Part shown: positions 1,565-25,383 of the stretch, piece after piece | Layout: every line of letters begins with the position of its first letter | How positions within the stretch are numbered: position 1 is the stretch's first letter | Source: Candidatus Harpocratesius repetitus | Lineage (GTDB): Archaea > Asgardarchaeota > Lokiarchaeia > Sigyniarchaeales > Promethearchaeaceae | NCBI GenBank assembly: GCA_021498095.1 | Contig: JAIZWK010000001.1 | Coordinates: 270,001-302,000, forward strand | Length of the DNA stretch: 32,000 bases | Direction of reading: 5' to 3' | Translations under genes and position numbers: made by a program | Notes under the pieces: model-generated | What the model was told of the DNA's origin: nothing | The model's input: the letters and a program-made list of their open reading frames with translations, nothing else | Databases searched by the model: none

Positions 1565-3619
1565 ATGTCAATAACGAAAAAACAAAACAAATCACCAGAA
1601 GAACAAGAATTGGAAGATTTTTTTAAGAAAAGTTTATTTAAAGAAGGGTTAGCTCGATGCCATGAAATGAAGGATAATCCATTTGTTTCAGAGAAGACAA
1701 AACTGAAAATAGGGATCTTTCAATTGCGCTTTATGGAAAAACTTGAAAAATTTGAAGAAGGCATCAAACATGCGGACTCATTGCTGAAATCAGAACCAAT
1801 TCGACTCTCTTCTATTCTAAAGGTAGAAGTTCTAACAGAATTGACTAAAATTTATTTTTCAAAAAGTGATTTAAATCTTGTTATTAAAACCATTCAACAA
1901 GCAGAAGAACTACTTTACCATGACAAATCTTTATCTAATGAAGAATTGGAGCAAAAAATGGCAGATTTAGTTCTACTTCGAGGGGGGTATGAATGGCATC
2001 AAGGAGAATTAGAAAATGCACTCTTCTTTTTTAAATTTAATTTAGAACTAAGGAAAAAATATGGAACCCATTTAGATTTAGCAAATGCATTGAATAATGT
2101 TGGCGTAATTTACAATGCAATTGGAGAACTACCCAAAGCATTGAAATACCTAAAGGACGCTTTAAATGAATACGAAAAAATTAAAAATATGAGGGGAATT
2201 TCGAAAACAGGACATAATATTGGGGCAATATTAATTCAGATGGGAGAATTAGATGAAAGTTTACAGTATATGCAAAAATCATTAAGTATTGATATTCAAG
2301 ATAATTATCGAGATGGAATAAGGGTTGCTTTGCAAAACATAGGTGAAGTTTATTGGCATAAGCGCGATTATGAGGAAGCACTAGATAATTTATCGAATTG
2401 TTTGGCTTTATTAGAAGAGACACAACAATTTTTCGAAATTACTGAAGTTTGCATACCATTAATTGCTGTGCATTTGGAAATGAATAATAAAGTTGCTGCA
2501 TTTCAATGTTTAACCAGAATAATTCAGATCCATAGTAAAGATCCAAATAAAGTTATAGAACAACGCTTGTGGTTGGGAAAAGGTCTTTATTTTAAATTCT
2601 TAAATACGTTTGAGAGTATTAAAAAAGCAGAATTCTATTTTAATCAAATTATTCATGATGAAGTGCGGTATTTCGATATAACAGCAATGGCTTGGGTTAA
2701 TCTCACAGAATTATACGTATTAAAGATGGAAAAGAATTATTCTTTTGAATTACTCAAACCTTTAAATGAGATTCTACAAAAAATGATTCAATTTGCACGT
2801 CAAAATCATTCTTATTCGATGGTAGGGGATTCTCTGTTAATTAAAGCAAAAGTGATGTTCCTGCAAGGTAATATTGAGAATTCTCACATTCTATTACAAA
2901 AAGCATTACGAATTGCCCAAAATCATGGATTACATCGTTTAGAAGTAAAAATACTACACGAATTAGATCTTTTCTTAGAAAAATCTGATTTTTGGGAATC
3001 AACTCCGTTTGTTGGTAAAACGAATTTATCAAAATCGATAAAAAAGTCTTATATAAATGCCTTAAAAAACCAAATCAGAGAAATCTTTTCTCCAGAAACA
3101 AGCAAAAATAAGGAAATTAATAAAAAAATAAATAAAAAAGTAGATAAAGATAAAAGAGATGAAGAAATAAAAATCAAAAAATCTTCATTGACTTCAACTT
3201 TGACAAAAAGTAGTGATAAAATAATTCCTGAATGCTTTCTAATTATCAATAAACATGGTCGTATTTTACTAAACACACCGTTTCAATCAAAATGGAAAGA
3301 AGAATCTCTCTTTTTTAGTGTTTTTCAAATCAATTTAATGTCTTTATTGCAAGATTTCGCCACCAAAGGCATTTCTATGAATCGATATGAAGATGTCAAG
3401 ATTCTTTTCTTTCACCTAAGCAAATTAAATTCGATTGGAATATTTATTTATCAAGGATCAGTTTTAATTGCTCTAAATAAAATAAAATTACTTAAAAAAA
3501 GGATCGAAGAAAATTTCTCTCAATTTTTAGAGTTTCAAGATATAGAAAGTCAACGGAAAGAATATGTTAACATGTTACAGCAAGATATTTTTAATTTCAT
3601 GGTAGGATTATGCAGTTAA
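1565..3619 (+). CDS. TPR-repeat protein (about 40-aa MalT/TPR_12-type repeats) with Lys-rich linker and putative C-terminal longin/roadblock-like alpha-beta domain
   Basis: 684-aa ORF. Consecutive repeats such as LANALNNVGVIYNAIGELPKALKYLKDAL, ISKTGHNIGAILIQMGELDESLQYMQKSL and IRVALQNIGEVYWHKRDYEEALDNLSNCL. The C-terminal about 130 aa begin CFLIINKHGRILL. Confidence 0.85.
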   Translation: MSITKKQNKSPEEQELEDFFKKSLFKEGLARCHEMKDNPFVSEKTKLKIGIFQLRFMEKLEKFEEGIKHADSLLKSEPIRLSSILKVEVLTELTKIYFSKSDLNLVIKTIQQAEELLYHDKSLSNEELEQKMADLVLLRGGYEWHQGELENALFFFKFNLELRKKYGTHLDLANALNNVGVIYNAIGELPKALKYLKDALNEYEKIKNMRGISKTGHNIGAILIQMGELDESLQYMQKSLSIDIQDNYRDGIRVALQNIGEVYWHKRDYEEALDNLSNCLALLEETQQFFEITEVCIPLIAVHLEMNNKVAAFQCLTRIIQIHSKDPNKVIEQRLWLGKGLYFKFLNTFESIKKAEFYFNQIIHDEVRYFDITAMAWVNLTELYVLKMEKNYSFELLKPLNEILQKMIQFARQNHSYSMVGDSLLIKAKVMFLQGNIENSHILLQKALRIAQNHGLHRLEVKILHELDLFLEKSDFWESTPFVGKTNLSKSIKKSYINALKNQIREIFSPETSKNKEINKKINKKVDKDKRDEEIKIKKSSLTSTLTKSSDKIIPECFLIINKHGRILLNTPFQSKWKEESLFFSVFQINLMSLLQDFATKGISMNRYEDVKILFFHLSKLNSIGIFIYQGSVLIALNKIKLLKKRIEENFSQFLEFQDIESQRKEYVNMLQQDIFNFMVGLCS

Positions 3620-6050: not shown

Positions 6051-6473
6051 ATGGATGAATTAGATGAAATATGGATATTACATGAATCAGGAGTGTGTTT
6101 ATATAATTATGCAATAGAAAAAAACATGAATCCTGCACTGTTTGGCTCTTTTTTTACTGCAATCAATCAATTCGGACAAGAATGTGCAAATAATTCAATT
6201 GATGATATTACAATGGGTAATAATTTCCTTTCAAGTTATAAGATTCCAGAATATCATGTTATATTAATAGGAAGATCAACTAAAACTAAAAAACGGAAAA
6301 CAATGCAGAAAATATTGGAAAAAATCGCAAAAATCTTTAAAACTCAATATTCTCCTGAAGATATTGCAAATTTTGATGGAAAGGTAGATAAATTTAATAA
6401 TTTAACTTCATTAATCGATTACTTCTTTAATCAACAAGAACATATGATAGAAGAACTTAAAATGATTTTTTAA
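6051..6473 (+). CDS. Stand-alone longin-like domain protein (Asgard type)
   Basis: 140 aa: IWILHESGVCLY beta-hairpin, ALFGSFFTAINQFGQE helix, three further strands, and KIAKIFKTQY...FDGKVDKF helices, matching longin topology. SD-like AAGGTGA 7 nt upstream of ATG. Confidence 0.7.
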   Translation: MDELDEIWILHESGVCLYNYAIEKNMNPALFGSFFTAINQFGQECANNSIDDITMGNNFLSSYKIPEYHVILIGRSTKTKKRKTMQKILEKIAKIFKTQYSPEDIANFDGKVDKFNNLTSLIDYFFNQQEHMIEELKMIF

Positions 6474-6545: not shown

Positions 6546-7679
6546 TTAAACAGCTTCAGCTGCACTTTTGGATTTTTTCTCGATAACTTTGGCTTTTTGC
6601 ATCAAATAAAATTCTTCTTTCATCAAATCTAATGCTTTTATCAATACATTCGCATTTTGAGCTTTTGTACGGTATTGTTTACGAATTGTATCCAAAAGAT
6701 GCAAGGGAAAGTATTTTTGAATGAAAAAATCGCTGATCAAACTATAATATTCATTTCCCTTATCATCTTGAAATACTGCAATCATTTTATTCTCCCAGAA
6801 TTTCCGAAGCACAAGATCTAAATCTTCAACTCCTTTCTTCCGAAGCTTTTCAAGATCATTTCGAGTTACCATTGCTTCTCTCAACAGTTTCAAAACTTCA
6901 TAACACTGAGGATCCAGCATGATTTCATCGATAATTTTAAGATTATCTTTATCATTTGGCTTGTACGCTTCAAAAAAGCTCCGAACCTCTTTAAGATAAT
7001 CATTCTTTAATGATTCTGGAAGATGACGATCCACAGGATCTTTGATTAATTCTTTAGGAGGAATTCGTAAAATCATCAATCCTTGAGCCAGAAAAACCAT
7101 ATCAGAAGATAAACCCTTTACGGAAGCTATTTTAACCAAACCACTTTTTACCATTCCGGTTAAAATATTTTCAACATCAACAAATCCTTCACGATATTGA
7201 TCTTTTAGCCAAATTGCAATTTCAGATTTACTTACGGCAGCTTCATCCCGAAGGCGTTGAATTATCAACCGTTTAACTTCACTGTTGTAATCCATACACA
7301 TTCTCTGTTCATCAGTAAGTGTAGGATAAACAGAAAGTCGTTGAAAAAGAGGAGGTAGAAGTGCATCAAGATTTCCTGAATCGAGATTTGGTATTATCTG
7401 GCGCGAAGTTTCAGCCAATATTTCTTCATATACATCACCATCTTCTTCAGCGGTTAGAAGCAAGATTATATAAACTGCAGAATCAGGTCCAGTATAATAG
7501 GATGCTAAATTAATAGCACCTGCTGTAATTGAAACAAGACCTGCTTCTCCGGTAAACTCATGTTGAGAATACAACTGCATTAACGTTTTTTCTTGAATTT
7601 GTGTTTCCTTTGGATAAGCTCCGAGAATTTCCACACCTATTCGCTCATCCCAATGCATTATGACCATTCCAGTAGGCAT
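6546..7679 (-). CDS. uDENN/longin-like N-terminal domain + two putative winged-helix domains (NPRL2/3-like architecture)
   Basis: N-terminus GMVIMHWDERIGVEILGAYP...VSITAGAINLASYYTG..AVYIILLL fits a uDENN-type longin pattern. KRLIIQRLRDEAAVSKSEIAIWL...LVKSGLVKI and CYEVLKLLREAMVTRNDLEKL...FWENKMIAVF fit wHTH patterns. Fold calls are by eye. Confidence 0.65.
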   Translation of the reverse strand: MPTGMVIMHWDERIGVEILGAYPKETQIQEKTLMQLYSQHEFTGEAGLVSITAGAINLASYYTGPDSAVYIILLLTAEEDGDVYEEILAETSRQIIPNLDSGNLDALLPPLFQRLSVYPTLTDEQRMCMDYNSEVKRLIIQRLRDEAAVSKSEIAIWLKDQYREGFVDVENILTGMVKSGLVKIASVKGLSSDMVFLAQGLMILRIPPKELIKDPVDRHLPESLKNDYLKEVRSFFEAYKPNDKDNLKIIDEIMLDPQCYEVLKLLREAMVTRNDLEKLRKKGVEDLDLVLRKFWENKMIAVFQDDKGNEYYSLISDFFIQKYFPLHLLDTIRKQYRTKAQNANVLIKALDLMKEEFYLMQKAKVIEKKSKSAAEAV

Positions 7680-7692
7680 TTTAGAGACCTCC
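7680..7692 (-). promoter_or_regulatory. Shine-Dalgarno GGAGGT embedded in the last codons of the giant gene, serving the 7679 start
   Basis: Minus strand reads GAA GGA GGT CTC TAA A ATG: SD 7 nt before the ATG, 1-nt intergenic gap. Confidence 0.75.
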
Positions 7693-10600
7693 TTCTGTTG
7701 ATGAACCTAATTCTTCCATAGGTTCAGGTGTTGTTGATTTTCCAACCCCTAAAATTGAAGCAATATCTAAGTCCAATAACTCCCAATAATCCTTAAAGCG
7801 ATCTGATATCTCTTCTTCATAGGTTTTGGTAATATTGTCATCAGAAATGACTTTGTTTCCTGAAATTAATTTCTTTGTCCTGTCAATCTGCTTGATAATC
7901 AATGGAATTCGAGCATATTGAATATATTTAGTGGTTCCAGCAATTGCAATGGCAATTAAAGCCACACTACCACCAATGTAAACAAAAATCTTAGGTACTC
8001 CGACTCCGCCAACAGTAAATTCAGGAGGAGTAACTGAAATCGTGATATCAAATGGAGCAATAGTATAATTTGTTTTTTCAACAGTAATGGTTGCTGTATC
8101 AGTTATAGCGGCTACTAATGCATTATATTCTTCAGAATTTGTATCAATAACATATCGGTATAATCCGGGTGTGTCAGTTTCTGGAATTGGAATATCATTT
8201 CCTCGATAATGCATTGTTACCGTCGCACCTGTTAAAGGTGCATTATCAACTGGGTCTGTCAAATTAAATTCGATAACAATCATATTTCCTTCAGGAGTTT
8301 CTGCAACTTTAGAAGCAATTTGCTCACCTAACGCGACCACAACGGGTCGTTCCTTGATAATTAAGGTTATTGTAGCAGATCGAGTTACAAAATTATTCTT
8401 TCCGAGATACACAGCAATGAGATAGGTTCCAACTGGTTTACTGATTGTATCAAAATCCATACGGTAGTATCCATTTTTCATATCGGTTAATAATCTTGAA
8501 TGCGTTCCAGAAGAATCTTCCCATTCAAAATAGGCTATATTTGCACCGGTTATAGCCGTTCCATCAATTTCACCGTATGTAATATAGAAATAATGAGTGG
8601 TACTAACATTAATACTGATATCATTTCGCAAGAAAATGGTGTTGTTAATTCGTGTTTGAATTGGATCAATTACCAAATAGAATGTTATTATTTGGGTTGA
8701 ATATTGGTACTTTTCAGCAGTAACATATAGAGTATAACTTCCAACACCTGCAAAATCGGTAGAATTTAATGTTATTGAATATGTACCTCCAGATTCATGA
8801 GAAAGAATTCCAGTCAATCCTGCTTGCTGACCAACGTAGAATGAAACTGTTCCGTCTGTTATTCCAGTACTTCGATATAAATCTGTGAATTGAACGGTAA
8901 TGGTGAATTGATCACGCCAAGTCACAGTGTAATTTGTTTGACTTGTAGTAAAGCTGGTTGGAATAACTAAAATATGAATTGTCAATACTAATTGCTGTGT
9001 TTCATATTGATTCTTAGTTGCAGTTATTCTGAATGTATATGTTCCAGCTTGACCGAAATCAATTGATTGCAAATCAAAAGTATAAGTTCCATCATTTTGT
9101 GAAATAAGATATCCATTTGATATTCCTAACGAAGCAGCATAGTAGGAGACAGTGGCATCTCCAATTCCTATTGGTGCGCTTGTATTGACTATGTTATCGA
9201 ATGATACAGTTAAATTCTCTGATTCGCCCCAATAGAGAGTGATTGAATCATTTTCATAAGTAGAAGATAATTCAGTTGGAATGGTCATTATTGCAACCGT
9301 AATTACCAATGTTCGTGTGGCATATTGAGGTTTGGATGCAGTAATTTCAAAAGTATAACTTCCTGCTTGACCAAAATCAAAAGAACTTAAGAATAATTCA
9401 TATCTACCATTGCTTCCAGAATATACAAATACTCCAGAATCGCTGTAATCTCCCGTTCCACTTACAACATAACTTACTGTTCCAGTTGAAATAGGAACTG
9501 GATTTAATGAATCATAAATATCAAAATAGCTTACAGATAATGTACAATTCATTTCCCAGTAAATGTATACTTTTGAGGCATTCGTGGTGAAATTAACAGG
9601 TCGAATCCCGATATCAACATTAATTACCAGCTGCTGTGTTTCATACTGATTTTTCGATGCTGTGATTGTAAATGAATATGTTCCATTAGTTCCGAAATAT
9701 GTGGTATTAAATTCGATCACATAAGCATTAAAGATGAAAGAATAAGCAATGGTCCCATTATATTCTGGATGACCAATAACTGTATATGTGACAGAACCAT
9801 CAGTGATATTCTGAGAGTTATCTTCATCAAAATAGACAATGCTTATTGTGAAATTATCGTTCCATGCAGCAGCAATTGTATCACTTGCAGTTGTCAATGT
9901 TGTATTAATTACTGCAATATTCACGGTGATTGAAAGGCTTTGAGTCAAATACTGACTTTTTTGAGCAGTAATCAAATAGGTATAAGTCCCTGCAACAAAT
10001 TGTCCACCTTCAATTGCATCAAATGAGATGTAATACCAACCTGTCCCTAAAGATGATAAAAGTCCAGAGTCTGCAAATTCATTCGGTCCGGAAGCAGAAT
10101 AACCTACAGTTCCATCATTAATTGCAATTAATTTATATAGATCTTCATAATATACTGAAAGTTCAAAAGATTCACCCCAATTCACCGAAATTGACAAGTC
10201 TTCTGCAGTTAATTTTGTTGGGATAATGTTGATATAAACTGTGATGGTTACCGATTGTGTTTCATACTGGTTCTTCATCGCGGTAATCACAAAAGTATAA
10301 GTTCCATTGAAACCAAAATCAGTAGAATTCAGAGTATCACGATAGGTTCCAGGGCTAGATGCATAATGAATTAATGATCCTGAACCAGAATAACCAACAG
10401 GTCCTGTAACAGTGTACGAAACAGTTGCACCGGTTGTGATAGGTACAGAATTTAGAAGATCACGAATATCTTCGAAATAAACTGAAAGTGTAAATTCTTC
10501 TCTCCAGTAAACATTGATAGTTTCAGTAGAGACAGTTAAATTTGTTAAAACTGTTTCAATATTTACTGTAATACTAAGACTTTGGGTTTGATGTTCAGAC

Positions 10601-13600
10601 AATTCAGCAGTTATCGTAAATGTATATGTTCCAGTTCTGTTAAAATCGATATCACTGATAAAATCTTTTGAGAACTCTCCACTTCCAATATATGTTAATG
10701 CACCTGAACCTGTATATGAAGCAGGTCCTGTGATTATATAAGAAATTGTTGCATCAGCTAATGGGGAACTGTCTCGTGCATCTAGATAAGTAACTGCAAT
10801 TGTAAAGCTTTCTTCCCAGAACAGAGTGATTGTTGTATTTGGAGTAGTCAAAGTGGTAGGTATAATTGCAACATTAATAATTATTGTGAGAGTTTGTGTT
10901 TCATACTGGTTTTTAGTAAATGTTAATGTATAAGTATAGGTTCCACCAGTAGTCCTATTAAAATATGAAGTTGTATTAAAAGTCTCACTATAAGAACCAT
11001 TATTTTCTGATGTGATAAAGCCAGTATCTAAGAAACTATCAGGACCGGTAGCAATGTAACTTACTGTCCCATCTGGAATTGGTCCACCAAATATGGTGCG
11101 AGTATCATCAGCCAAAACTGAAATTGTAAATTCTTCATTTAGGTTCAGATTATACTGTGATGTCTGAGTACTAAAACTAACAGGAATCAGTAGAACATCT
11201 ACGTATATATATATTTCAGATGTTTCATATTGATTCTTTGCTGCGACAATGTGAAAGATGTAACTATCTGCATCACCTAAACTTGAACTGTTTATGGTTA
11301 AATTATAGGTAAATCCACCTACATAATTCATGGATAAATCCATTGAAGTATTCCGAATTGTATCCACAATAACTGAAGCATCAGGTATTGGTTGGTTACG
11401 GTATGTATCATTCAAATTTATGGAAAGATAAATATTTTCACTCCAGTATACTTGAATATGGTCATCAACATGATTAGAATAGATTTCAGTAGGAATTATT
11501 TTAATTTGAACATAAATAATTATTGATTTTGACTCATATTGATTTCGTTGGGCAGAAATAATAAAGGAATAATTTCCTGCTTGGTCAAAACTAGTTGTAT
11601 TATATGTCAAATTATATTGTCCATTACCCACATTGACTAAATCATTATCAAAAAGAGTACTTCCAACCAAATATGAAGTTACCTCTGAGTTTGAATTAAT
11701 AGGCAGATCTCTATAAGTATCAAAATAAGAAACAGATAAAGTGAAGTTTTCTTCCCAATAAACACTTATATATTGAGTCTCCGTTGTCAAATTGGTAGGA
11801 ACCTTTGAAAGATTTAAAGTAATTTGAATTTGAGATGTTTCATAGTACTCTTTTACAGCAGTTATCGAAATGTAATGAATACCTGCCTCAATGAACTGCG
11901 TTGTATTTAATTCACAAGAATAAATTCCATTTCCTTGATGAATAAGTGACCCAGTTAAAGAAGGAATTCCCACTACACTAAAAGAGAGATCACCAGTTAA
12001 GATTTGTTTTTGATAATATGTATCAGTGAAATTTACCAATATAGTAATATTGTCCTCCCAATAAGCAGAAATAGTATCCGAGGCATGAAGAGAAACCAGT
12101 GTTGTTGGAATAATCTTAATTGTTATCTCGTCTGTTTGAGATTTCGATTCATAATGATTTTTCTGAGCATTAATTGTTATTGATTTTGCCCCAGTTCCTG
12201 AAAATTGAGTGGAATTAAATTCATATCTATACCACCCATTTCCCAACTCAACAAATGTTCCATTAAGTTCAGAATTAGTAAAGGAAATATTTGCATTTTC
12301 TACAGGACGATTGTTCAGAGTATCATTATAATATACTAAAGCAGTGAAGTTTTCAAACCAATATGGCGCGTAATTATCGTAAGAAATAACCAATTCAGTT
12401 GTAATCTCTTGTACTTCTATTGAGACATATTCAGTTAATGGTTCAAAACCTGCTTTTGAAGCATAAATATATAAAACATATCGACGGTTTGTATCTAAAT
12501 TAAAGTTTCCATCACTTGAATTAAACGTTAACTCATAATAACCTGCAGTGCCGTTTGAATTCATTGTTCCTGAATGTATAACCAATCCTAAACTATCATC
12601 AACAATCTCATAGTTTACCACTGCTTCAGAAATTCCAAAATACCCTCCGCTAGTTGTTCCGTAGGTATAATTCGCAATTATTGTTAAGTTTTGATTCCAA
12701 TAATGGCTGTTTACAAGATTAGAATAGGGATTTGTGGGATTATTCGTTGTCCAAGATAATCTTGACTCAAAATTCTCCATTTGAACAGATATTGTGTGAG
12801 TTGTATATTGACTTACAGTAAAATTAACCCGATTTTGGAAATGATATGTTCCAACATCAACAACACTATAATTTAACAAACGATAATCTCCGTAGGAATA
12901 GACTTTGATAGTATAATTTCCTGTCGCTTCGGTACTATTAAGATAATAAAAGGTAACTTGACCACTATCATCTGAAATTTCAGATCCGATATATCCTCCA
13001 TAAGAATTCATGTTTGGATCAGTATTATTCCAATACAATGATACATTCGCACCACTAATCACTTCTGCTGGATTGTCATAATTTTGCAGATTTAAAACTA
13101 TTTGAGTAAGATTGAGTTTTGATACTTGAACTGTTTGTGTTGTATCTAAGGTTATATTTACCCATCGTAATTCTATCTCTGGTTTATTATAAGCTTGATA
13201 TGAAATTTTACATGTAAGATTCATCTGTTTTAAATTATAAAACGTTGTTTTTCCCGATTCATCAGATTTTTGCGAGATTGGTTCAAATGTATTAGGTCCT
13301 GTAATACTGGTATAATAACCACTCCAATTTTCGGTAGTATTATAAAGTGTTATATTCACATTTCTTGCGGGTAAATCATCTCGATCGGTTAATTCAAAAC
13401 CTAAATTGAAAAATAGTTTTTCTTCATTATCAATGGATGACTGTAAAGGATTTTCTAAAGATTGATAATATGCATCAATTTCTTCATTTATAGTAGGTAA
13501 AGTAATTGGTAGATATTTTTTCGCCATTTCCCAAAACTCAACTGAAACATTATAATTAGATTGTGTGGGATAATCACCATTTCGAGGTCCATGATTATTC

Positions 13601-15477
13601 AGATCAGTTTGATAACCACATACAATATTTGGTTGATCTGAAGTATAAAAGGCAGTCATATTTGCAGATGAAAATTCCATAATTGGATTTCCTTTAACCA
13701 AATCTGTTACGAAGACTCCACATGCCACTTTTTCGTTATTACCAGTGTTATCGTAAGTAATAACATAATTTTCTGCAATAAAGTCATCAGAACTTAAAGC
13801 CCGAGGAGATGAAGAACTATCTTCAATATAAACATCTACACCAGTAGTTGATGAACTTGGGTAGTTAGTGTTAAAGATCGTCCATTCATTCCCAGTTGTT
13901 TCATTAATATTATCTTTCCACCAAAAAGTCCGATAGTATTTAACCATAGGAAAATCACGGTAAAAAGTAATAGTATCCCATGTTTTCATTGTTGCTGAAT
14001 CTTCCCATGTTAAATCAAAAGTGGAAAATATTGGTCCTTCTTCTACTAGTGAAATACTTTCAATATTTATTTTTGGAATATGTGAAATAACCAAATTTGG
14101 AATTTCTTCATAAGCAGAACTATTACTTGAAAAACGAAGTCTAAATCCCCAACCTCCTCCACGTTCTTCAACCATAATAATAAACGAATGCCAACCTGCA
14201 GCAATTGTTCCTAAATTAACTGAATCTTGATCCACTCTTGGAGCTCGTAATACATGATTTTCATGTACTCTTGTTCCATCCATATACAAGCGAACACCAT
14301 CATCACTACCAATTAATGCATATCCAGGACTAACATCTTGTGGAAAGTAAACATAAATCATACCATAAGCGACTTCATCATCTTGTGTTCCAAAAATATC
14401 AGCATCTTGGAGATTAATATAATCATCAGCATCATGATGGGCAAACCATTGTTTTGTTTCATCAAGTCCTCTGGAGCATGCTTCACCCTCTGGAGGTGCA
14501 GTAGCATAACTTCCTTCGACATATAATTGAGTAGGATCAATCATATTGTAGATTCCCGTACCGTATGTAGGATGATATACAGTTGGTGTATTACTCCAAC
14601 TAGTATACGGTGATGTATCGAACGATCCAACTAATAACCAATCCCGAATAAACCCATAGGCATCAGGAGAATATGTATCTGAAGATCCACCAGAAACAAT
14701 GTCTGATAAAGGACTCATGGAAGTGTCAGTATGGTAGTTAATCGGATCTGTATTCTCAAATTGAAAAGTATCAAATGCAGAGCCTGTTCCGAATTCAACA
14801 TATAGAGAATCTGTGTCAACTACAGCCCGTTCTGTGCTGGGATTATAACTTGTCGACATTCCTGTGTCAATATAATATTGATCATAATTTGTCGCCATTG
14901 CAGAAGAAGAATAATATAAGTAATAATTATTCGTACTGTTTTTTGCAATGGTAACAGAAAATGTAACCGAACAACTTTTCAGAAAATCTCCTGGACTCCC
15001 ACCATCTTGCCAGTAAGTCATATTCCATGTTTGTGATGGTATTTCTGTTTGTGAAGAGCCATCATAATAAACGATACGAGTGCTATTTTTATATGCAGTT
15101 CCATTATCAAATGAAAAATATAACGTAACAGGCTCATACTCTCTATTTTTCACATTAGGCTCAGTTATTGTTATCAACTTGCGAAAATCGAAGTTTTCAT
15201 CCCACCAATCAATTGCTCCTGCTGCAGAAACAGGAGAATGAAGAAGATTTGAATTTTCATCATATAACTTATCATCAATTTTTGATATTTCATCCGGACG
15301 GAATGAATTATCAAAATTTTTACCATCATCAACATTATTACTAAAATTAGTGTGAGGCCTATAATAAAAACTTGAAGAACTCACTAAGAATATCATAACA
15401 ATGACAGTAAAACTAATAACCTTGCGAATTTTGTTCTTTTCCAAAATTATATCACCCGATTTATAAGTTAATTTCAC
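7681..15477 (-). CDS. Giant type-I membrane surface protein/adhesin: signal anchor, DUF2341-like region, PA14-like module, prealbumin/carboxypeptidase-regulatory-like domains, about 15 Ig-like repeats, TM helix, cytoplasmic tail
   Basis: 2,598-codon ORF. Hydrophobic N-terminus, WWDENFDFRKLITITE (DUF2341-like), IGSDDGVRLYMDG...GWHSFIIMVEERGGGWGFRLRF (PA14-like), repeats of about 100-108 aa, IFVYIGGSVALIAIAIAGT TM at about 7935-7990, many N-x-S/T sequons. The true start may be the in-frame TTG at 15444, which has GGTGAT 6 nt upstream. Confidence 0.9.
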   Translation of the reverse strand: MKLTYKSGDIILEKNKIRKVISFTVIVMIFLVSSSSFYYRPHTNFSNNVDDGKNFDNSFRPDEISKIDDKLYDENSNLLHSPVSAAGAIDWWDENFDFRKLITITEPNVKNREYEPVTLYFSFDNGTAYKNSTRIVYYDGSSQTEIPSQTWNMTYWQDGGSPGDFLKSCSVTFSVTIAKNSTNNYYLYYSSSAMATNYDQYYIDTGMSTSYNPSTERAVVDTDSLYVEFGTGSAFDTFQFENTDPINYHTDTSMSPLSDIVSGGSSDTYSPDAYGFIRDWLLVGSFDTSPYTSWSNTPTVYHPTYGTGIYNMIDPTQLYVEGSYATAPPEGEACSRGLDETKQWFAHHDADDYINLQDADIFGTQDDEVAYGMIYVYFPQDVSPGYALIGSDDGVRLYMDGTRVHENHVLRAPRVDQDSVNLGTIAAGWHSFIIMVEERGGGWGFRLRFSSNSSAYEEIPNLVISHIPKINIESISLVEEGPIFSTFDLTWEDSATMKTWDTITFYRDFPMVKYYRTFWWKDNINETTGNEWTIFNTNYPSSSTTGVDVYIEDSSSSPRALSSDDFIAENYVITYDNTGNNEKVACGVFVTDLVKGNPIMEFSSANMTAFYTSDQPNIVCGYQTDLNNHGPRNGDYPTQSNYNVSVEFWEMAKKYLPITLPTINEEIDAYYQSLENPLQSSIDNEEKLFFNLGFELTDRDDLPARNVNITLYNTTENWSGYYTSITGPNTFEPISQKSDESGKTTFYNLKQMNLTCKISYQAYNKPEIELRWVNITLDTTQTVQVSKLNLTQIVLNLQNYDNPAEVISGANVSLYWNNTDPNMNSYGGYIGSEISDDSGQVTFYYLNSTEATGNYTIKVYSYGDYRLLNYSVVDVGTYHFQNRVNFTVSQYTTHTISVQMENFESRLSWTTNNPTNPYSNLVNSHYWNQNLTIIANYTYGTTSGGYFGISEAVVNYEIVDDSLGLVIHSGTMNSNGTAGYYELTFNSSDGNFNLDTNRRYVLYIYASKAGFEPLTEYVSIEVQEITTELVISYDNYAPYWFENFTALVYYNDTLNNRPVENANISFTNSELNGTFVELGNGWYRYEFNSTQFSGTGAKSITINAQKNHYESKSQTDEITIKIIPTTLVSLHASDTISAYWEDNITILVNFTDTYYQKQILTGDLSFSVVGIPSLTGSLIHQGNGIYSCELNTTQFIEAGIHYISITAVKEYYETSQIQITLNLSKVPTNLTTETQYISVYWEENFTLSVSYFDTYRDLPINSNSEVTSYLVGSTLFDNDLVNVGNGQYNLTYNTTSFDQAGNYSFIISAQRNQYESKSIIIYVQIKIIPTEIYSNHVDDHIQVYWSENIYLSINLNDTYRNQPIPDASVIVDTIRNTSMDLSMNYVGGFTYNLTINSSSLGDADSYIFHIVAAKNQYETSEIYIYVDVLLIPVSFSTQTSQYNLNLNEEFTISVLADDTRTIFGGPIPDGTVSYIATGPDSFLDTGFITSENNGSYSETFNTTSYFNRTTGGTYTYTLTFTKNQYETQTLTIIINVAIIPTTLTTPNTTITLFWEESFTIAVTYLDARDSSPLADATISYIITGPASYTGSGALTYIGSGEFSKDFISDIDFNRTGTYTFTITAELSEHQTQSLSITVNIETVLTNLTVSTETINVYWREEFTLSVYFEDIRDLLNSVPITTGATVSYTVTGPVGYSGSGSLIHYASSPGTYRDTLNSTDFGFNGTYTFVITAMKNQYETQSVTITVYINIIPTKLTAEDLSISVNWGESFELSVYYEDLYKLIAINDGTVGYSASGPNEFADSGLLSSLGTGWYYISFDAIEGGQFVAGTYTYLITAQKSQYLTQSLSITVNIAVINTTLTTASDTIAAAWNDNFTISIVYFDEDNSQNITDGSVTYTVIGHPEYNGTIAYSFIFNAYVIEFNTTYFGTNGTYSFTITASKNQYETQQLVINVDIGIRPVNFTTNASKVYIYWEMNCTLSVSYFDIYDSLNPVPISTGTVSYVVSGTGDYSDSGVFVYSGSNGRYELFLSSFDFGQAGSYTFEITASKPQYATRTLVITVAIMTIPTELSSTYENDSITLYWGESENLTVSFDNIVNTSAPIGIGDATVSYYAASLGISNGYLISQNDGTYTFDLQSIDFGQAGTYTFRITATKNQYETQQLVLTIHILVIPTSFTTSQTNYTVTWRDQFTITVQFTDLYRSTGITDGTVSFYVGQQAGLTGILSHESGGTYSITLNSTDFAGVGSYTLYVTAEKYQYSTQIITFYLVIDPIQTRINNTIFLRNDISINVSTTHYFYITYGEIDGTAITGANIAYFEWEDSSGTHSRLLTDMKNGYYRMDFDTISKPVGTYLIAVYLGKNNFVTRSATITLIIKERPVVVALGEQIASKVAETPEGNMIVIEFNLTDPVDNAPLTGATVTMHYRGNDIPIPETDTPGLYRYVIDTNSEEYNALVAAITDTATITVEKTNYTIAPFDITISVTPPEFTVGGVGVPKIFVYIGGSVALIAIAIAGTTKYIQYARIPLIIKQIDRTKKLISGNKVISDDNITKTYEEEISDRFKDYWELLDLDIASILGVGKSTTPEPMEELGSSTEGGL
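8020..12765 (-). repeat. About 15 tandem diverged Ig-like protein repeats (about 310 nt each) inside the giant gene
   Basis: Consensus PTxLT...xYWxExFTLSVxYxD....PIxDATVSY...GxGxYxxxFNSTxF...GTYTFxITAxKNQYETQxLxITVxI. I counted 15 copies manually; boundaries are approximate. Confidence 0.85.
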
Positions 15478-23427: not shown

Positions 23428-25383
23428 TCATGATTTTCTTCGATAGTATAACCCAGTTAGCGAAACTACTAATACACCCATAATTATTGGGGTAGAAAAT
23501 CCAGGAACTTTCAATCCATTATTATCATCATCATCGGTTGAAGTATCATCAGTTGAAGTATCATCAGTTGAAGTATCATCGGTTGAAGTATCATCAGTTG
23601 AAGTATCATCAGTTTGGGGCTCATCTGAGTCGCCCACATTTAATATTTGATAAGGTAAATAACCAGGATCATAGACGGTTAAATTTAAAGTGCTTAATTC
23701 TGATGAATTATATGGTATTTGAATTATACCTTCAGCAGAAGATAAGCCCTTAAAGAGAACACTTTCTTCTCTGGTGATTGTAATTGTTGCGTTCGCTAAT
23801 GGTAAACCTTCAATATTGGAAATTTTCAAATCAGTGTATTCTTGAGTGCTATTTTTGGTTACATTTATAATCTGAGGGCGTTGAAACCACAGACGAACTT
23901 CTGGATCGCCCATTAAATTCATTTGCTTTAAGGTTTTATTTTCCCAATCTGGAAAATATGGACGATCGGCATTATAATAAAGTGGATTGGCTCTATCTAA
24001 AACGTAATCTTCTTTTGCCAACGCTAAAGCAGCCCCCGGTTGTTGAGAAATCATAAGCTGTTCGAAAAAGCGGTAGGTCAACCCGTCCGAATACCAACCT
24101 CCATACTCACGCTCATACCACTCATCTTCACCCCAAACAACCTGACTACCTCCAATTGCACCAATAGCAATTGTTTTTAAAAATGTTTCAGTTAAGCAAT
24201 CTGTTGGAGCATTAAAAGTACCTACACTGCAACCACCTAAATAGTAAAAACCGAGGACGTTTGTGTTTGGTGCTAAATCATCATAAACTGTTATCAAAGG
24301 TATTGAAAGAGTCTCATCTATTGCAGGGGCATAATATCCAGTGCCATTTCTATCGAATAAGCCATCACCATCGTAATCTTTTGAAAATATGGTTCGATAC
24401 ATAGAATATGGATTTCCATGACCAGCAATTGCCCCAATGCTATACCCATGATTAAGTTGTGCAACCAAACTATCTTCAGAAATGCTTTCATTAACCGAAT
24501 ATTTCGTGGGAACAAGCCCTTGAGTTTCTCCCATAAAATATGTCGACCAATTAGTTATACTTTCATTTAAAATCGTTTTATCGATAAAATGGGTAAATCG
24601 ATTATAATCACCACCTAAATAATCAGGTTGACTGTCATTATCCCAATCTTCATCGAAAAACAACTGAGCACCAGCCATTAAAGCACTCCCAAACCAATCA
24701 CCATCAGGAGGTGCACTTTCATATTGTACAACTCGATCGGCTAAAAATTTAAGTTCATTAAAGGAATTCACTGATAATCTTCCTACATAAACTTCGGGGT
24801 GGTAATCGAAACCGTCATCCAATTCTCCCCAAATCTGATTATTGTTTGAATCCCAATCATTATCCAGATCTGTATAATATGAATCACAACTCACATAATC
24901 ACCATCACCAGAATAATCTTCAGGTGCATATGCTTCACGTGTTGGAACATCATCTTCATCACCAGCTAAAAGCACCCATGTTGTATTATAATTTTCATAG
25001 TAATCAGTAATACATGATTTGATTTTTGCAGCTAAATCTATACCATCATAGTTAGTATTGATAAATCCAATTGGTATTATCACAGCTGAAACACCTTTCT
25101 GACTTTTCCAATTAGCCAATTCCTGCACTGCATCCACATTATCATCAGGAACAATAATCAAATAGTCCACTCCATACAATAACTCTGATGAAAGATCAGG
25201 TTTTGATATATACAAGAGTCTATCTTGTGAATAATTGTTTGTTCTATTCAATTTTGTGCTTGATTTCGGAATTAAATCAATAAATAGAAAGGATCCTATT
25301 ATTGAACTTATAAGTAAAAATCCAAAAAGATATGGTATTAATCTTCTTGAATTCCTATGATTTTTAATAGTATATCTCTTCAT
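23428..25383 (-). CDS. Secreted C25 (gingipain-like) cysteine peptidase with acidic linker and PGF/Loki-CTERM-type sorting tail
   Basis: Signal anchor; YLIIVP, WKSQKG, WVLLAGD, SCDSYYTDLD...PEVYVGRL; catalytic AGHG (His 24418-24420) and GGC (Cys 24229-24231); C-terminus VPGFSTPIIMGVLVVSLTGLYYRRKS. Confidence 0.9.
   Translation of the reverse strand: MKRYTIKNHRNSRRLIPYLFGFLLISSIIGSFLFIDLIPKSSTKLNRTNNYSQDRLLYISKPDLSSELLYGVDYLIIVPDDNVDAVQELANWKSQKGVSAVIIPIGFINTNYDGIDLAAKIKSCITDYYENYNTTWVLLAGDEDDVPTREAYAPEDYSGDGDYVSCDSYYTDLDNDWDSNNNQIWGELDDGFDYHPEVYVGRLSVNSFNELKFLADRVVQYESAPPDGDWFGSALMAGAQLFFDEDWDNDSQPDYLGGDYNRFTHFIDKTILNESITNWSTYFMGETQGLVPTKYSVNESISEDSLVAQLNHGYSIGAIAGHGNPYSMYRTIFSKDYDGDGLFDRNGTGYYAPAIDETLSIPLITVYDDLAPNTNVLGFYYLGGCSVGTFNAPTDCLTETFLKTIAIGAIGGSQVVWGEDEWYEREYGGWYSDGLTYRFFEQLMISQQPGAALALAKEDYVLDRANPLYYNADRPYFPDWENKTLKQMNLMGDPEVRLWFQRPQIINVTKNSTQEYTDLKISNIEGLPLANATITITREESVLFKGLSSAEGIIQIPYNSSELSTLNLTVYDPGYLPYQILNVGDSDEPQTDDTSTDDTSTDDTSTDDTSTDDTSTDDDDNNGLKVPGFSTPIIMGVLVVSLTGLYYRRKS
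23537..23611. repeat. Coding tandem repeat, 5 x 15 bp (GTTGAAGTATCATCR), encoding (TDDTS)5 on the minus strand
   Basis: Five near-identical copies read directly; only the last base varies (A/G). Confidence 0.95.

Follow-up and report, generated by a model that had tools for sequence, protein, structure and literature searches.

The window analysed here, a 32,000-nucleotide (nt) stretch of the genome of the Asgard archaeon Candidatus Harpocratesius repetitus (contig JAIZWK010000001.1), carries on its minus strand two adjoining genes, one for a giant surface protein and one for a 377-residue cytoplasmic protein with a longin domain and winged helices (WH), hereafter the adaptor. We think it probable that the two form a constitutive receptor–adaptor pair tied to a longin-Arf/Rag-like GTPase. 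The evidence for this lies in the anatomy and folds of the two proteins, the conservation of their coupling, natural fusions between them, and the neighbourhood and co-occurrence of one GTPase family. Coordinates refer to the window unless a contig or locus is given.

The two genes meet in the sequence GGAGGT-CTC-TAA-A-ATG, in which a Shine-Dalgarno (SD) sequence (7692-7687) is followed by the stop codon of the giant gene (7683-7681), a spacer base (7680) and the ATG of the adaptor gene (7679-7677), so that the giant gene stops one base from the adaptor start. The original prediction, which was made from the letters of the window, had described a 2,598-codon open reading frame (ORF) ending 1 nt from the ATG of a 377-amino-acid (aa) ORF, with the GGAGGT motif written into its last codons; the ORF list and the junction sequence bear out both statements. 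The GTG start of the giant gene (15477) has no SD sequence. An alternative TTG start at 15444 has GGTGAT in front of it and gives a protein of 2,587 aa, the length of the protein-database record, and on sequence grounds appears the more likely start. Scanning for sigma-70 promoters and terminators gave counts at the level of shuffled sequence, the bacterial-type model being uninformative for an archaeon.

The pairing was followed across the phylum. Members of the adaptor family were detected in 201 of 301 Asgard genomes scanned (E ≤ 1e-20), and in all sampled genomes of the window genome's own family and order (f1, 6/6; f2, 69/69). Homologues of the adaptor (649, 50–83% identical) occur in many Asgard metagenome-assembled genomes (MAGs) and in Lokiarchaeum ossiferum. 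Junctions were compared at 35 places, namely 30 loci fetched by the scan from f1 and f2 (the window locus included), a second copy in this genome and four loci of L. ossiferum. At 30/30 of the f1 and f2 loci an upstream ORF on the same strand ends −1 to +3 nt from the adaptor ATG; the four L. ossiferum junctions each have a gap of 1 nt, and the second cassette of this genome has a gap of 0 nt. A GGAGG-type SD sequence lies inside the last codons of the upstream gene at 35/35 junctions. Furthermore, at 28 of the 30 loci a transmembrane (TM) helix lies about 83 aa before the giant stop and is followed by a strongly conserved tail.

Three of the L. ossiferum cassettes stand in tandem and the fourth elsewhere, with giants of 2,005–3,420 aa and partners of 376 or 377 aa. 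Adaptors of this genome and of L. ossiferum share 73% identity, and the giants can be aligned over no more than their last ~300 aa (26–29% identity). The second cassette of the same genome (C1:2962043-2970271; L063:4044-12272, minus strand), in which the genes abut, is flanked by unrelated housekeeping genes. Its adaptor is 62% identical to that of the window, and its giant (2,361 aa) carries FG-GAP (integrin-alpha-type) repeats, an MG2-like match and the same tail module. The giant heads vary among cassettes (unknown, FG-GAP, Laminin_G and CarboxypepD_reg), and sequence comparison suggests a picture of variable ectodomains on a constant tail-plus-adaptor. A looser pairing was seen in three of ten genomes sampled from distant Asgard families (L046, L054 and L058), where the gene before the adaptor homologue encodes a membrane protein with a single TM pass and a long acidic tail; the lengths of these proteins are 868, 872 and at least 1,473 aa. 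The gene pairing is more than chance; the synteny by which the original prediction proposed to check it is kept at all 30 loci fetched from the same order, in the four L. ossiferum cassettes and in the second cassette of this genome, and in looser form in the distant genomes.

The two proteins also occur as a single chain. A representative search returned at least nine diverse proteins (588–2,548 aa) in which ectodomain, TM helix, tail module and full adaptor are one ORF, and the genome scan found fused open frames of 2,100–3,009 aa in several same-order genomes. The terminal Gly-Gly of the tail is missing from the fused forms in an alignment of 33 tails, which fits a role of Gly-Gly in the split forms in encoding the SD sequence. 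One genome region (G210:C9:430340-464784) holds a tandem row of five fused giant-adaptor genes, one every ~8.3 kb, with frames of 2,655–2,678 aa, two of them with one in-frame TAA.

Contact between the two proteins was examined by co-folding the adaptor (alignment of 37 homologues) with the tail (33 sequences). The interaction prediction score from aligned errors (ipSAE) was 0.78, 0.78 and 0.79, against 0.00 for the best control; contact agreement between runs was at least 92% and the predicted local distance difference test score (pLDDT) of the partners at least 73. In calibration the mark was reached by 58 of 80 solved complexes and by 2 of 110 mismatched pairs, which is a rough guide here, custom alignments having been used. 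The predicted interface lies within adaptor residues 202–241 and 319–357 and involves tail residues 9–60, the conserved module; adaptor R205, P207 and F236 and the I, P and W positions of the module belong to it. On the adaptor it is formed by the wing of the first winged helix (WH1), the linker helix, the end of the second winged helix (WH2) and the C-terminal helices, and it leaves the longin domain free. The adaptor is predicted from these models to bind the tail of the giant, and the co-folding check suggested in the original prediction came out in favour of contact.

The AlphaFold2 (AF2) model of the adaptor (mb917fbfcdb40, with 37 homologues as alignment; pLDDT 88.4, predicted template-modelling score 0.77) contains a longin domain of the order beta-beta-alpha-beta-beta-beta-alpha (residues 1–120), a winged helix (121–208), a linker helix, a second winged helix (241–325) and two C-terminal helices. 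A Foldseek search of the PDB with this model returned the NPRL2/NPRL3 chains of GATOR1 first (7t3b_C, E 2.9e-4), followed by Fuzzy-Inturned, Mon1-Ccz1, ESCRT-II and DENN proteins. Against AFDB-SwissProt four NPRL2 orthologues were among the top five, and adaptor residues 2–303 aligned to NPRL2 residues 7–329 with an E-value of 2e-4 but a template-modelling score of only 0.23. Pfam gave no family for the adaptor alone and neither a family nor an NPR2 or NPR3 match at E ≤ 5 for any of the 37 members of the alignment; likewise, a profile search against PDB sequences returned no match, and the ESM Atlas only unnamed Asgard clusters. Judged from the model, the description of the adaptor as an NPRL2/3-like longin plus winged-helix protein is right in fold and domain order. 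The N-terminal longin and the winged helices that had been proposed are borne out by the AF2 model and Foldseek, and of the earlier label 'uDENN/longin' the longin part stands; 'uDENN' was imprecise, because the model shows two winged helices and no DENN domain after the longin.

The longin domain is acidic (isoelectric point, pI, 4.2) and contains 21 of the adaptor's 54 invariant positions, and the winged helices have pI values of 6.4 and 4.9, with a Lys-rich conserved turn in WH2. Residues W10, D11, G15, P23, H40, S60 and G64 of the longin are kept even in relatives of less than 30% identity, W10, D11 and G15 in 34, 31 and 34, respectively, of 37 such relatives. The W-D-x3-G in the beta1-beta2 loop has the same spacing as W33-D34...G38 of C9orf72, as a pattern match only. 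In C9orf72 these residues are reported to be conserved and essential for the GTPase-activating protein (GAP) activity of C9orf72-SMCR8, and the W-D...G(P) motif is common to FLCN, NPRL2 and some Asgard longins (PMC12290439). Two members of the adaptor family (P0167 and P0175, ~1,020–1,046 aa) continue after longin-WH-WH into a SIR2_2 domain and MalT-like tetratricopeptide repeats (TPR). Some members having such C-terminal parts, the longin-WH-WH unit can be regarded as a portable module.

A GTPase of one family is found beside the adaptor in other Asgard genomes. In a MAG labelled Hodarchaeota by its submitter (L067), two giant-adaptor cassettes bracket a convergent gene for a 344-aa putative longin-Arf-like GTPase, in which an N-terminal extension of ~120 aa precedes a G domain of the Arf family (residues 122–254); by Pfam the family is Arf-like, with a weak Gtr1_RagA match. 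Longin-GTPase fusions of this kind have been described (Tran et al., 2024; PMC10933270). Next to P0133 (L069), a gene in which giant and adaptor are fused, comes a Ras/Arf-like GTPase gene in convergent orientation, and its product is extended in a similar way. In distant Asgard families the GTPase family adjoins the adaptor homologue at nine of ten loci without an upstream membrane-protein gene, and at L043, L048, L050 and L051 the adaptor comes first, with the GTPase on the same strand at gaps of −4 to +29 nt. Moreover, in at least 24 same-order genomes among the matches listed in two phylum scans, an adaptor match lies 150–420 nt from a GTPase match, mostly in convergent orientation.

Adaptor and GTPase were both found in families f1, f2, f5, f9, f10, f14, f21 and f23, and both were essentially not found in f7 (adaptor 1/28, GTPase 0/28), f16 (0/11 and 0/11), f24 (1/21 and 0/21) and f29 (1/11 and 0/11). 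This co-occurrence at family level is supportive rather than statistical, because related genomes are not independent. The window genome contains one clear orthologue of the 344-aa GTPase (C1:2149203-2151206; L076:16704-18707, plus strand; 52% identity, E 1e-121), a protein of 667 aa with its G domain at residues 123–253 and ~410 extra C-terminal residues without a family. A 127-aa longin-only paralogue of the adaptor (C1:2146500-2146868) lies 2.3 kb from this orthologue. An adaptor paralogue of 341 aa (25% identity) lies ~9 kb from it. Elsewhere, in a distant Asgard genome (L040/L049; G012:C1:180823-182677), a 168-aa longin-only paralogue stands directly before the adaptor homologue and, by analogy, may possibly be a heterodimer partner in the manner of NPRL2-NPRL3.

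For the giant protein, a two-repeat AF2 model, built with the internal repeats as alignment, was all-beta (pLDDT 89.8), and its top Foldseek matches were macroglobulin (MG) domains of complement C3b, the S-layer protein SbsC and immunoglobulin (Ig) domains (PD-L1), with E-values of 4e-5 and <1e-3. The ectodomain contains 69 N-x-S/T sequons, against 40 expected from its composition, and the 377-aa protein contains none. Taken from its sequence features, the giant is probably a glycosylated type-I surface protein, and the single-pass surface protein with Ig-like repeats of the original prediction is recovered in the repeats, the repeat model, the TM helix and the sequon excess. The defined cytoplasmic tail that had been noticed is also present, its length measuring 82 aa, close to the ~75 aa first given. 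Within it the docking module spans about aa 2525–2576, with the pattern IP..K...I....IS......W..L.L..IL in the 33-tail alignment. The tails at the two remaining loci of the 30 (L037 and L039, from genomes G129 and G040) hold a long acidic Pro/Glu repeat of the PEPEIEEE type between the module and the SD-encoding end. The idea of a PA14 or lectin head was rejected, the Pfam matches to PA14 (E 0.07) and CBM35 (E 0.14) both falling below the cut-off, and the ESM Atlas search with the giant head gave no named or usable match.

Table 1. Parts of the giant and adaptor genes in the window, with the basis of each assignment.
Feature	Position	Strand	Basis
Gene of putative giant type-I surface protein	7681..15477	−	ORF list, translation; 2,598 codons from GTG 15477
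N-terminal hydrophobic segment (aa 20-38), signal peptide or anchor	15364..15420	−	hydropathy scan
Distal head (aa ~40-975), ~930 aa, without assignable family	12553..15360	−	Pfam, ESM Atlas
~15 tandem Ig/macroglobulin-like beta-sandwich repeats, ~100 aa each (aa 976-2480)	8038..12552	−	jackhmmer self-search
Single C-terminal TM helix (aa ~2492-2516)	7930..8004	−	hydropathy scan
Conserved cytoplasmic tail, 82 aa	7684..7929	−	alignment of 33 tails
GGAGGT Shine-Dalgarno in last codons of giant gene (Gly-Gly)	7687..7692	−	sequence; seen at 35/35 homologous junctions
Coupling junction (TAA, one base, ATG)	7677..7683	−	sequence
Adaptor gene, 377 codons (longin, WH, WH, C-terminal helices)	6546..7679	−	ORF list, AF2 model
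Predicted longin domain (aa 1-120)	7320..7679	−	signature W10-D11-x3-G15, P23, H40, S60, G64
Predicted winged helix 1 (aa 121-208)	7056..7319	−	AF2 model
Linker helix, winged helix 2 and C-terminal helices (aa 209-377)	6549..7055	−	AF2 model; predicted tail-binding face

In the mechanism that we propose, the giant protein would be exported and N-glycosylated, with a variable head on a stalk of ~15 Ig/MG-like repeats, and would be anchored by one TM helix with a conserved cytoplasmic module of ~65 aa beyond it. Translation of the adaptor would begin by re-initiation where the giant gene stops, and both proteins would therefore be made in roughly fixed proportion. The WH2 and C-terminal helices of the adaptor would clamp the tail module, and the adaptor so clamped would keep its acidic, highly conserved longin just beneath the membrane. 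As an NPRL2/C9orf72-type longin (W-D-x3-G), this domain would be the platform for a dedicated longin-Arf/Rag-like GTPase, here the orthologue at C1:2149203-2151206, and would pair with the longin of the GTPase as in GATOR1, FLCN-FNIP and C9orf72-SMCR8. In this manner the GTPase switch would be coupled to the surface protein, to its position or its ligand state. The contact of adaptor and GTPase, a GAP or guanine nucleotide exchange factor activity, the direction of signalling and a role in adhesion are the parts of this mechanism that we infer.

One further reading, quite unlikely in our estimate, is a prokaryotic outside-in device and forerunner of the eukaryotic longin GAP complexes (GATOR1, FLCN-FNIP and C9orf72-SMCR8), in which clustering or contact of interchangeable ectodomains would act through the tail, the adaptor would switch the GTPase, and membrane or actin protrusions would be steered in syntrophic contact. 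Traffic in the other direction, in which the tail-bound adaptor delivers, clusters or retains the giant at protrusions or vesicles under the control of an Arf-like GTPase, much as the sigma and mu longins of adaptor-protein (AP) complexes or SRX-SRbeta do, we regard as unlikely. Coat genes and other AP-like subunits are missing from the neighbourhood, and in distant families an adaptor-GTPase operon exists without a membrane-protein gene. The computed data separate neither sorting nor outside-in signalling from the other.

The resemblance of the winged helices to ArsR/MarR regulators would fit a membrane-sequestered transcription factor, whose winged helices bind DNA and which the tail holds until contact or proteolysis, in an anti-sigma or Notch-like manner. 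This we consider very unlikely, because the winged helices are not basic by their domain pI values, a fused adaptor stays fixed to the membrane by the TM helix in front of it, and the partner with which the adaptor is conserved is a GTPase. In addition, adaptor and NPRL2 are collinear throughout, and in GATOR1 the winged helices of NPRL2 make contacts with proteins; in the co-fold WH2 and the C-terminal helices are occupied by the tail. It is also true that the products of neighbouring genes often do not bind each other, and the small gene might only use the transcript of the giant, the likeness to a receptor and adaptor being coincidental. Such co-expression without a physical link is hardly probable at all given the independent in-frame fusions and the co-folding scores; moreover, the tail is conserved far above the ectodomain, and all 35 coupled junctions are kept.

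Several observations weigh against a receptor–adaptor pair tied to the GTPase. The co-folding score is a measure of model confidence and not a measurement. Some distant families have the GTPase without the adaptor, as in f22 (adaptor 0/7 vs GTPase 6/7). No GTPase gene adjoins either cassette in this genome, where the orthologue is unlinked, and none was seen within 1.5 kb on either side of the 30 closest loci. The link to small-GTPase control drawn in the original prediction has comparative support, in the neighbourhood of one longin-Arf-like family and the matching phyletic pattern, but not adjacency in this genome. At the level of residues, the invariant G15 is followed by V, T or A, so that the published 'GP' motif is without its Pro, and the beta4-beta5 loop of the adaptor has no conserved Arg; a conserved R13 lies in the beta1-beta2 loop instead. 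Because the Pro is replaced and that Arg is absent, a catalytic GAP capacity of the adaptor seems doubtful, and the same two features make it look more like that half of a longin-longin pocket which is not catalytic. The N-terminal domain of the GTPase itself would be a candidate for the other half.

Among the other genes of the window, the plus-strand gene at 1565-3619 encodes a MalT-like TPR protein, and MalT-like repeats are also present in P0167 and P0175. The C-terminus of this protein and a 140-aa ORF (6051-6473, plus strand) had likewise been described as longin-like from the letters of the window. When the two were compared with the adaptor profile, the hhalign probability was below 1% for both, a longin fold still being possible, and Pfam gave no match for the 140-aa ORF. 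A 651-aa protein encoded at 23428-25383 (minus strand) matches Peptidase_C25 (gingipain-type) strongly (E 3e-44).

Small GTPases and longin/roadblock proteins number in the dozens in Asgard archaea. Genome layout rarely tells which regulator matches which GTPase (Tran et al., 2024; PMC10933270). The module described here would be one concrete matched set, in which the tail of a surface protein, an adaptor resembling NPRL2 and one particular longin-Arf-like GTPase belong together; fusions, operons and co-occurrence support it. Through this set, GTPase machinery like that of eukaryotes would be connected with the 'complex surface proteins' that cryo-electron tomography has shown on Lokiarchaeum cells (PMC9834061), which are invoked in models of cell–cell contact before eukaryogenesis.

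In the accessible parts of the asCOG paper, 'NPRL2-like longin domain' proteins are reported in Asgard archaea (Liu et al., 2020; 10.1101/2020.10.19.343400), in the same organisms and with the same domain labels as the adaptor. That paper and the L. ossiferum paper (PMC9834061), in the portions available, describe fusions to two-component domains and a DENN/LAMTOR/Rab operon. An orthogroup of 'NPRL2-like longin domain' plus 'HTH domain' (cog.008476 / cog.000164) is listed for both cultured Lokiarchaeia and may include the adaptor; locus tags of the L. ossiferum homologues were not found in the accessible part of the record. Within a partly accessible literature of incomplete coverage, no published description was found of an adaptor coupled or fused to a giant surface protein, of the tail module or of the particular GTPase beside the adaptor. 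This suggests that what is new here is a longin-platform GTPase regulator tethered to a surface receptor tail, NPRL2-like Asgard longins being already known. The parts are small enough, or can be trimmed, to be used in assays of binding and GTPase activity, and strains in culture are available.

NPRL2 and NPRL3 (Npr2 and Npr3 in yeast) are longin subunits of GATOR1/SEACIT, the GAP for RagA/Gtr1. They share with the adaptor an N-terminal longin followed by winged helices in the same order, and are its best matches in the PDB and AFDB-SwissProt; a further likeness would be that both work next to a membrane, together with a small GTPase carrying its own longin/roadblock partner domain, for which the gene neighbourhood speaks on the Asgard side. 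In contrast, the adaptor has no detectable sequence homology to them, no TINI segment and no conserved Arg at the finger position, and its 'GP' is G-V/T/A. The predicted anchor of the adaptor is the tail of a surface protein in the plasma membrane, whereas that of GATOR1 is lysosomal KICSTOR, and the GTPase neighbouring the adaptor is Arf-like and only weakly Gtr1/RagA-like. C9orf72 forms with SMCR8 a longin-DENN GAP complex for Arf/Rab GTPases. The adaptor resembles it in the W-D-x3-G of the beta1-beta2 loop at equal spacing and in an Arf-type GTPase as the likely client, and differs in having no DENN or dDENN domain and no 'GP' Pro, with no SMCR8-like Arg-finger partner identified. On the outer side of the membrane, integrins with talin/kindlin and the giant Ig-repeat adhesins (SiiE and BAP) offer the nearest comparison. 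To our knowledge the bacterial giant Ig-repeat adhesins are without a cytoplasmic adaptor, and there is no homology to the integrin-talin/kindlin system in tail or adaptor. The likeness lies in a large, modular Ig-repeat ectodomain, in a single TM helix with a short conserved tail that, as predicted here, is bound by a cytoplasmic adaptor, and in the FG-GAP repeats, of integrin-alpha type, that the second cassette of this genome carries.

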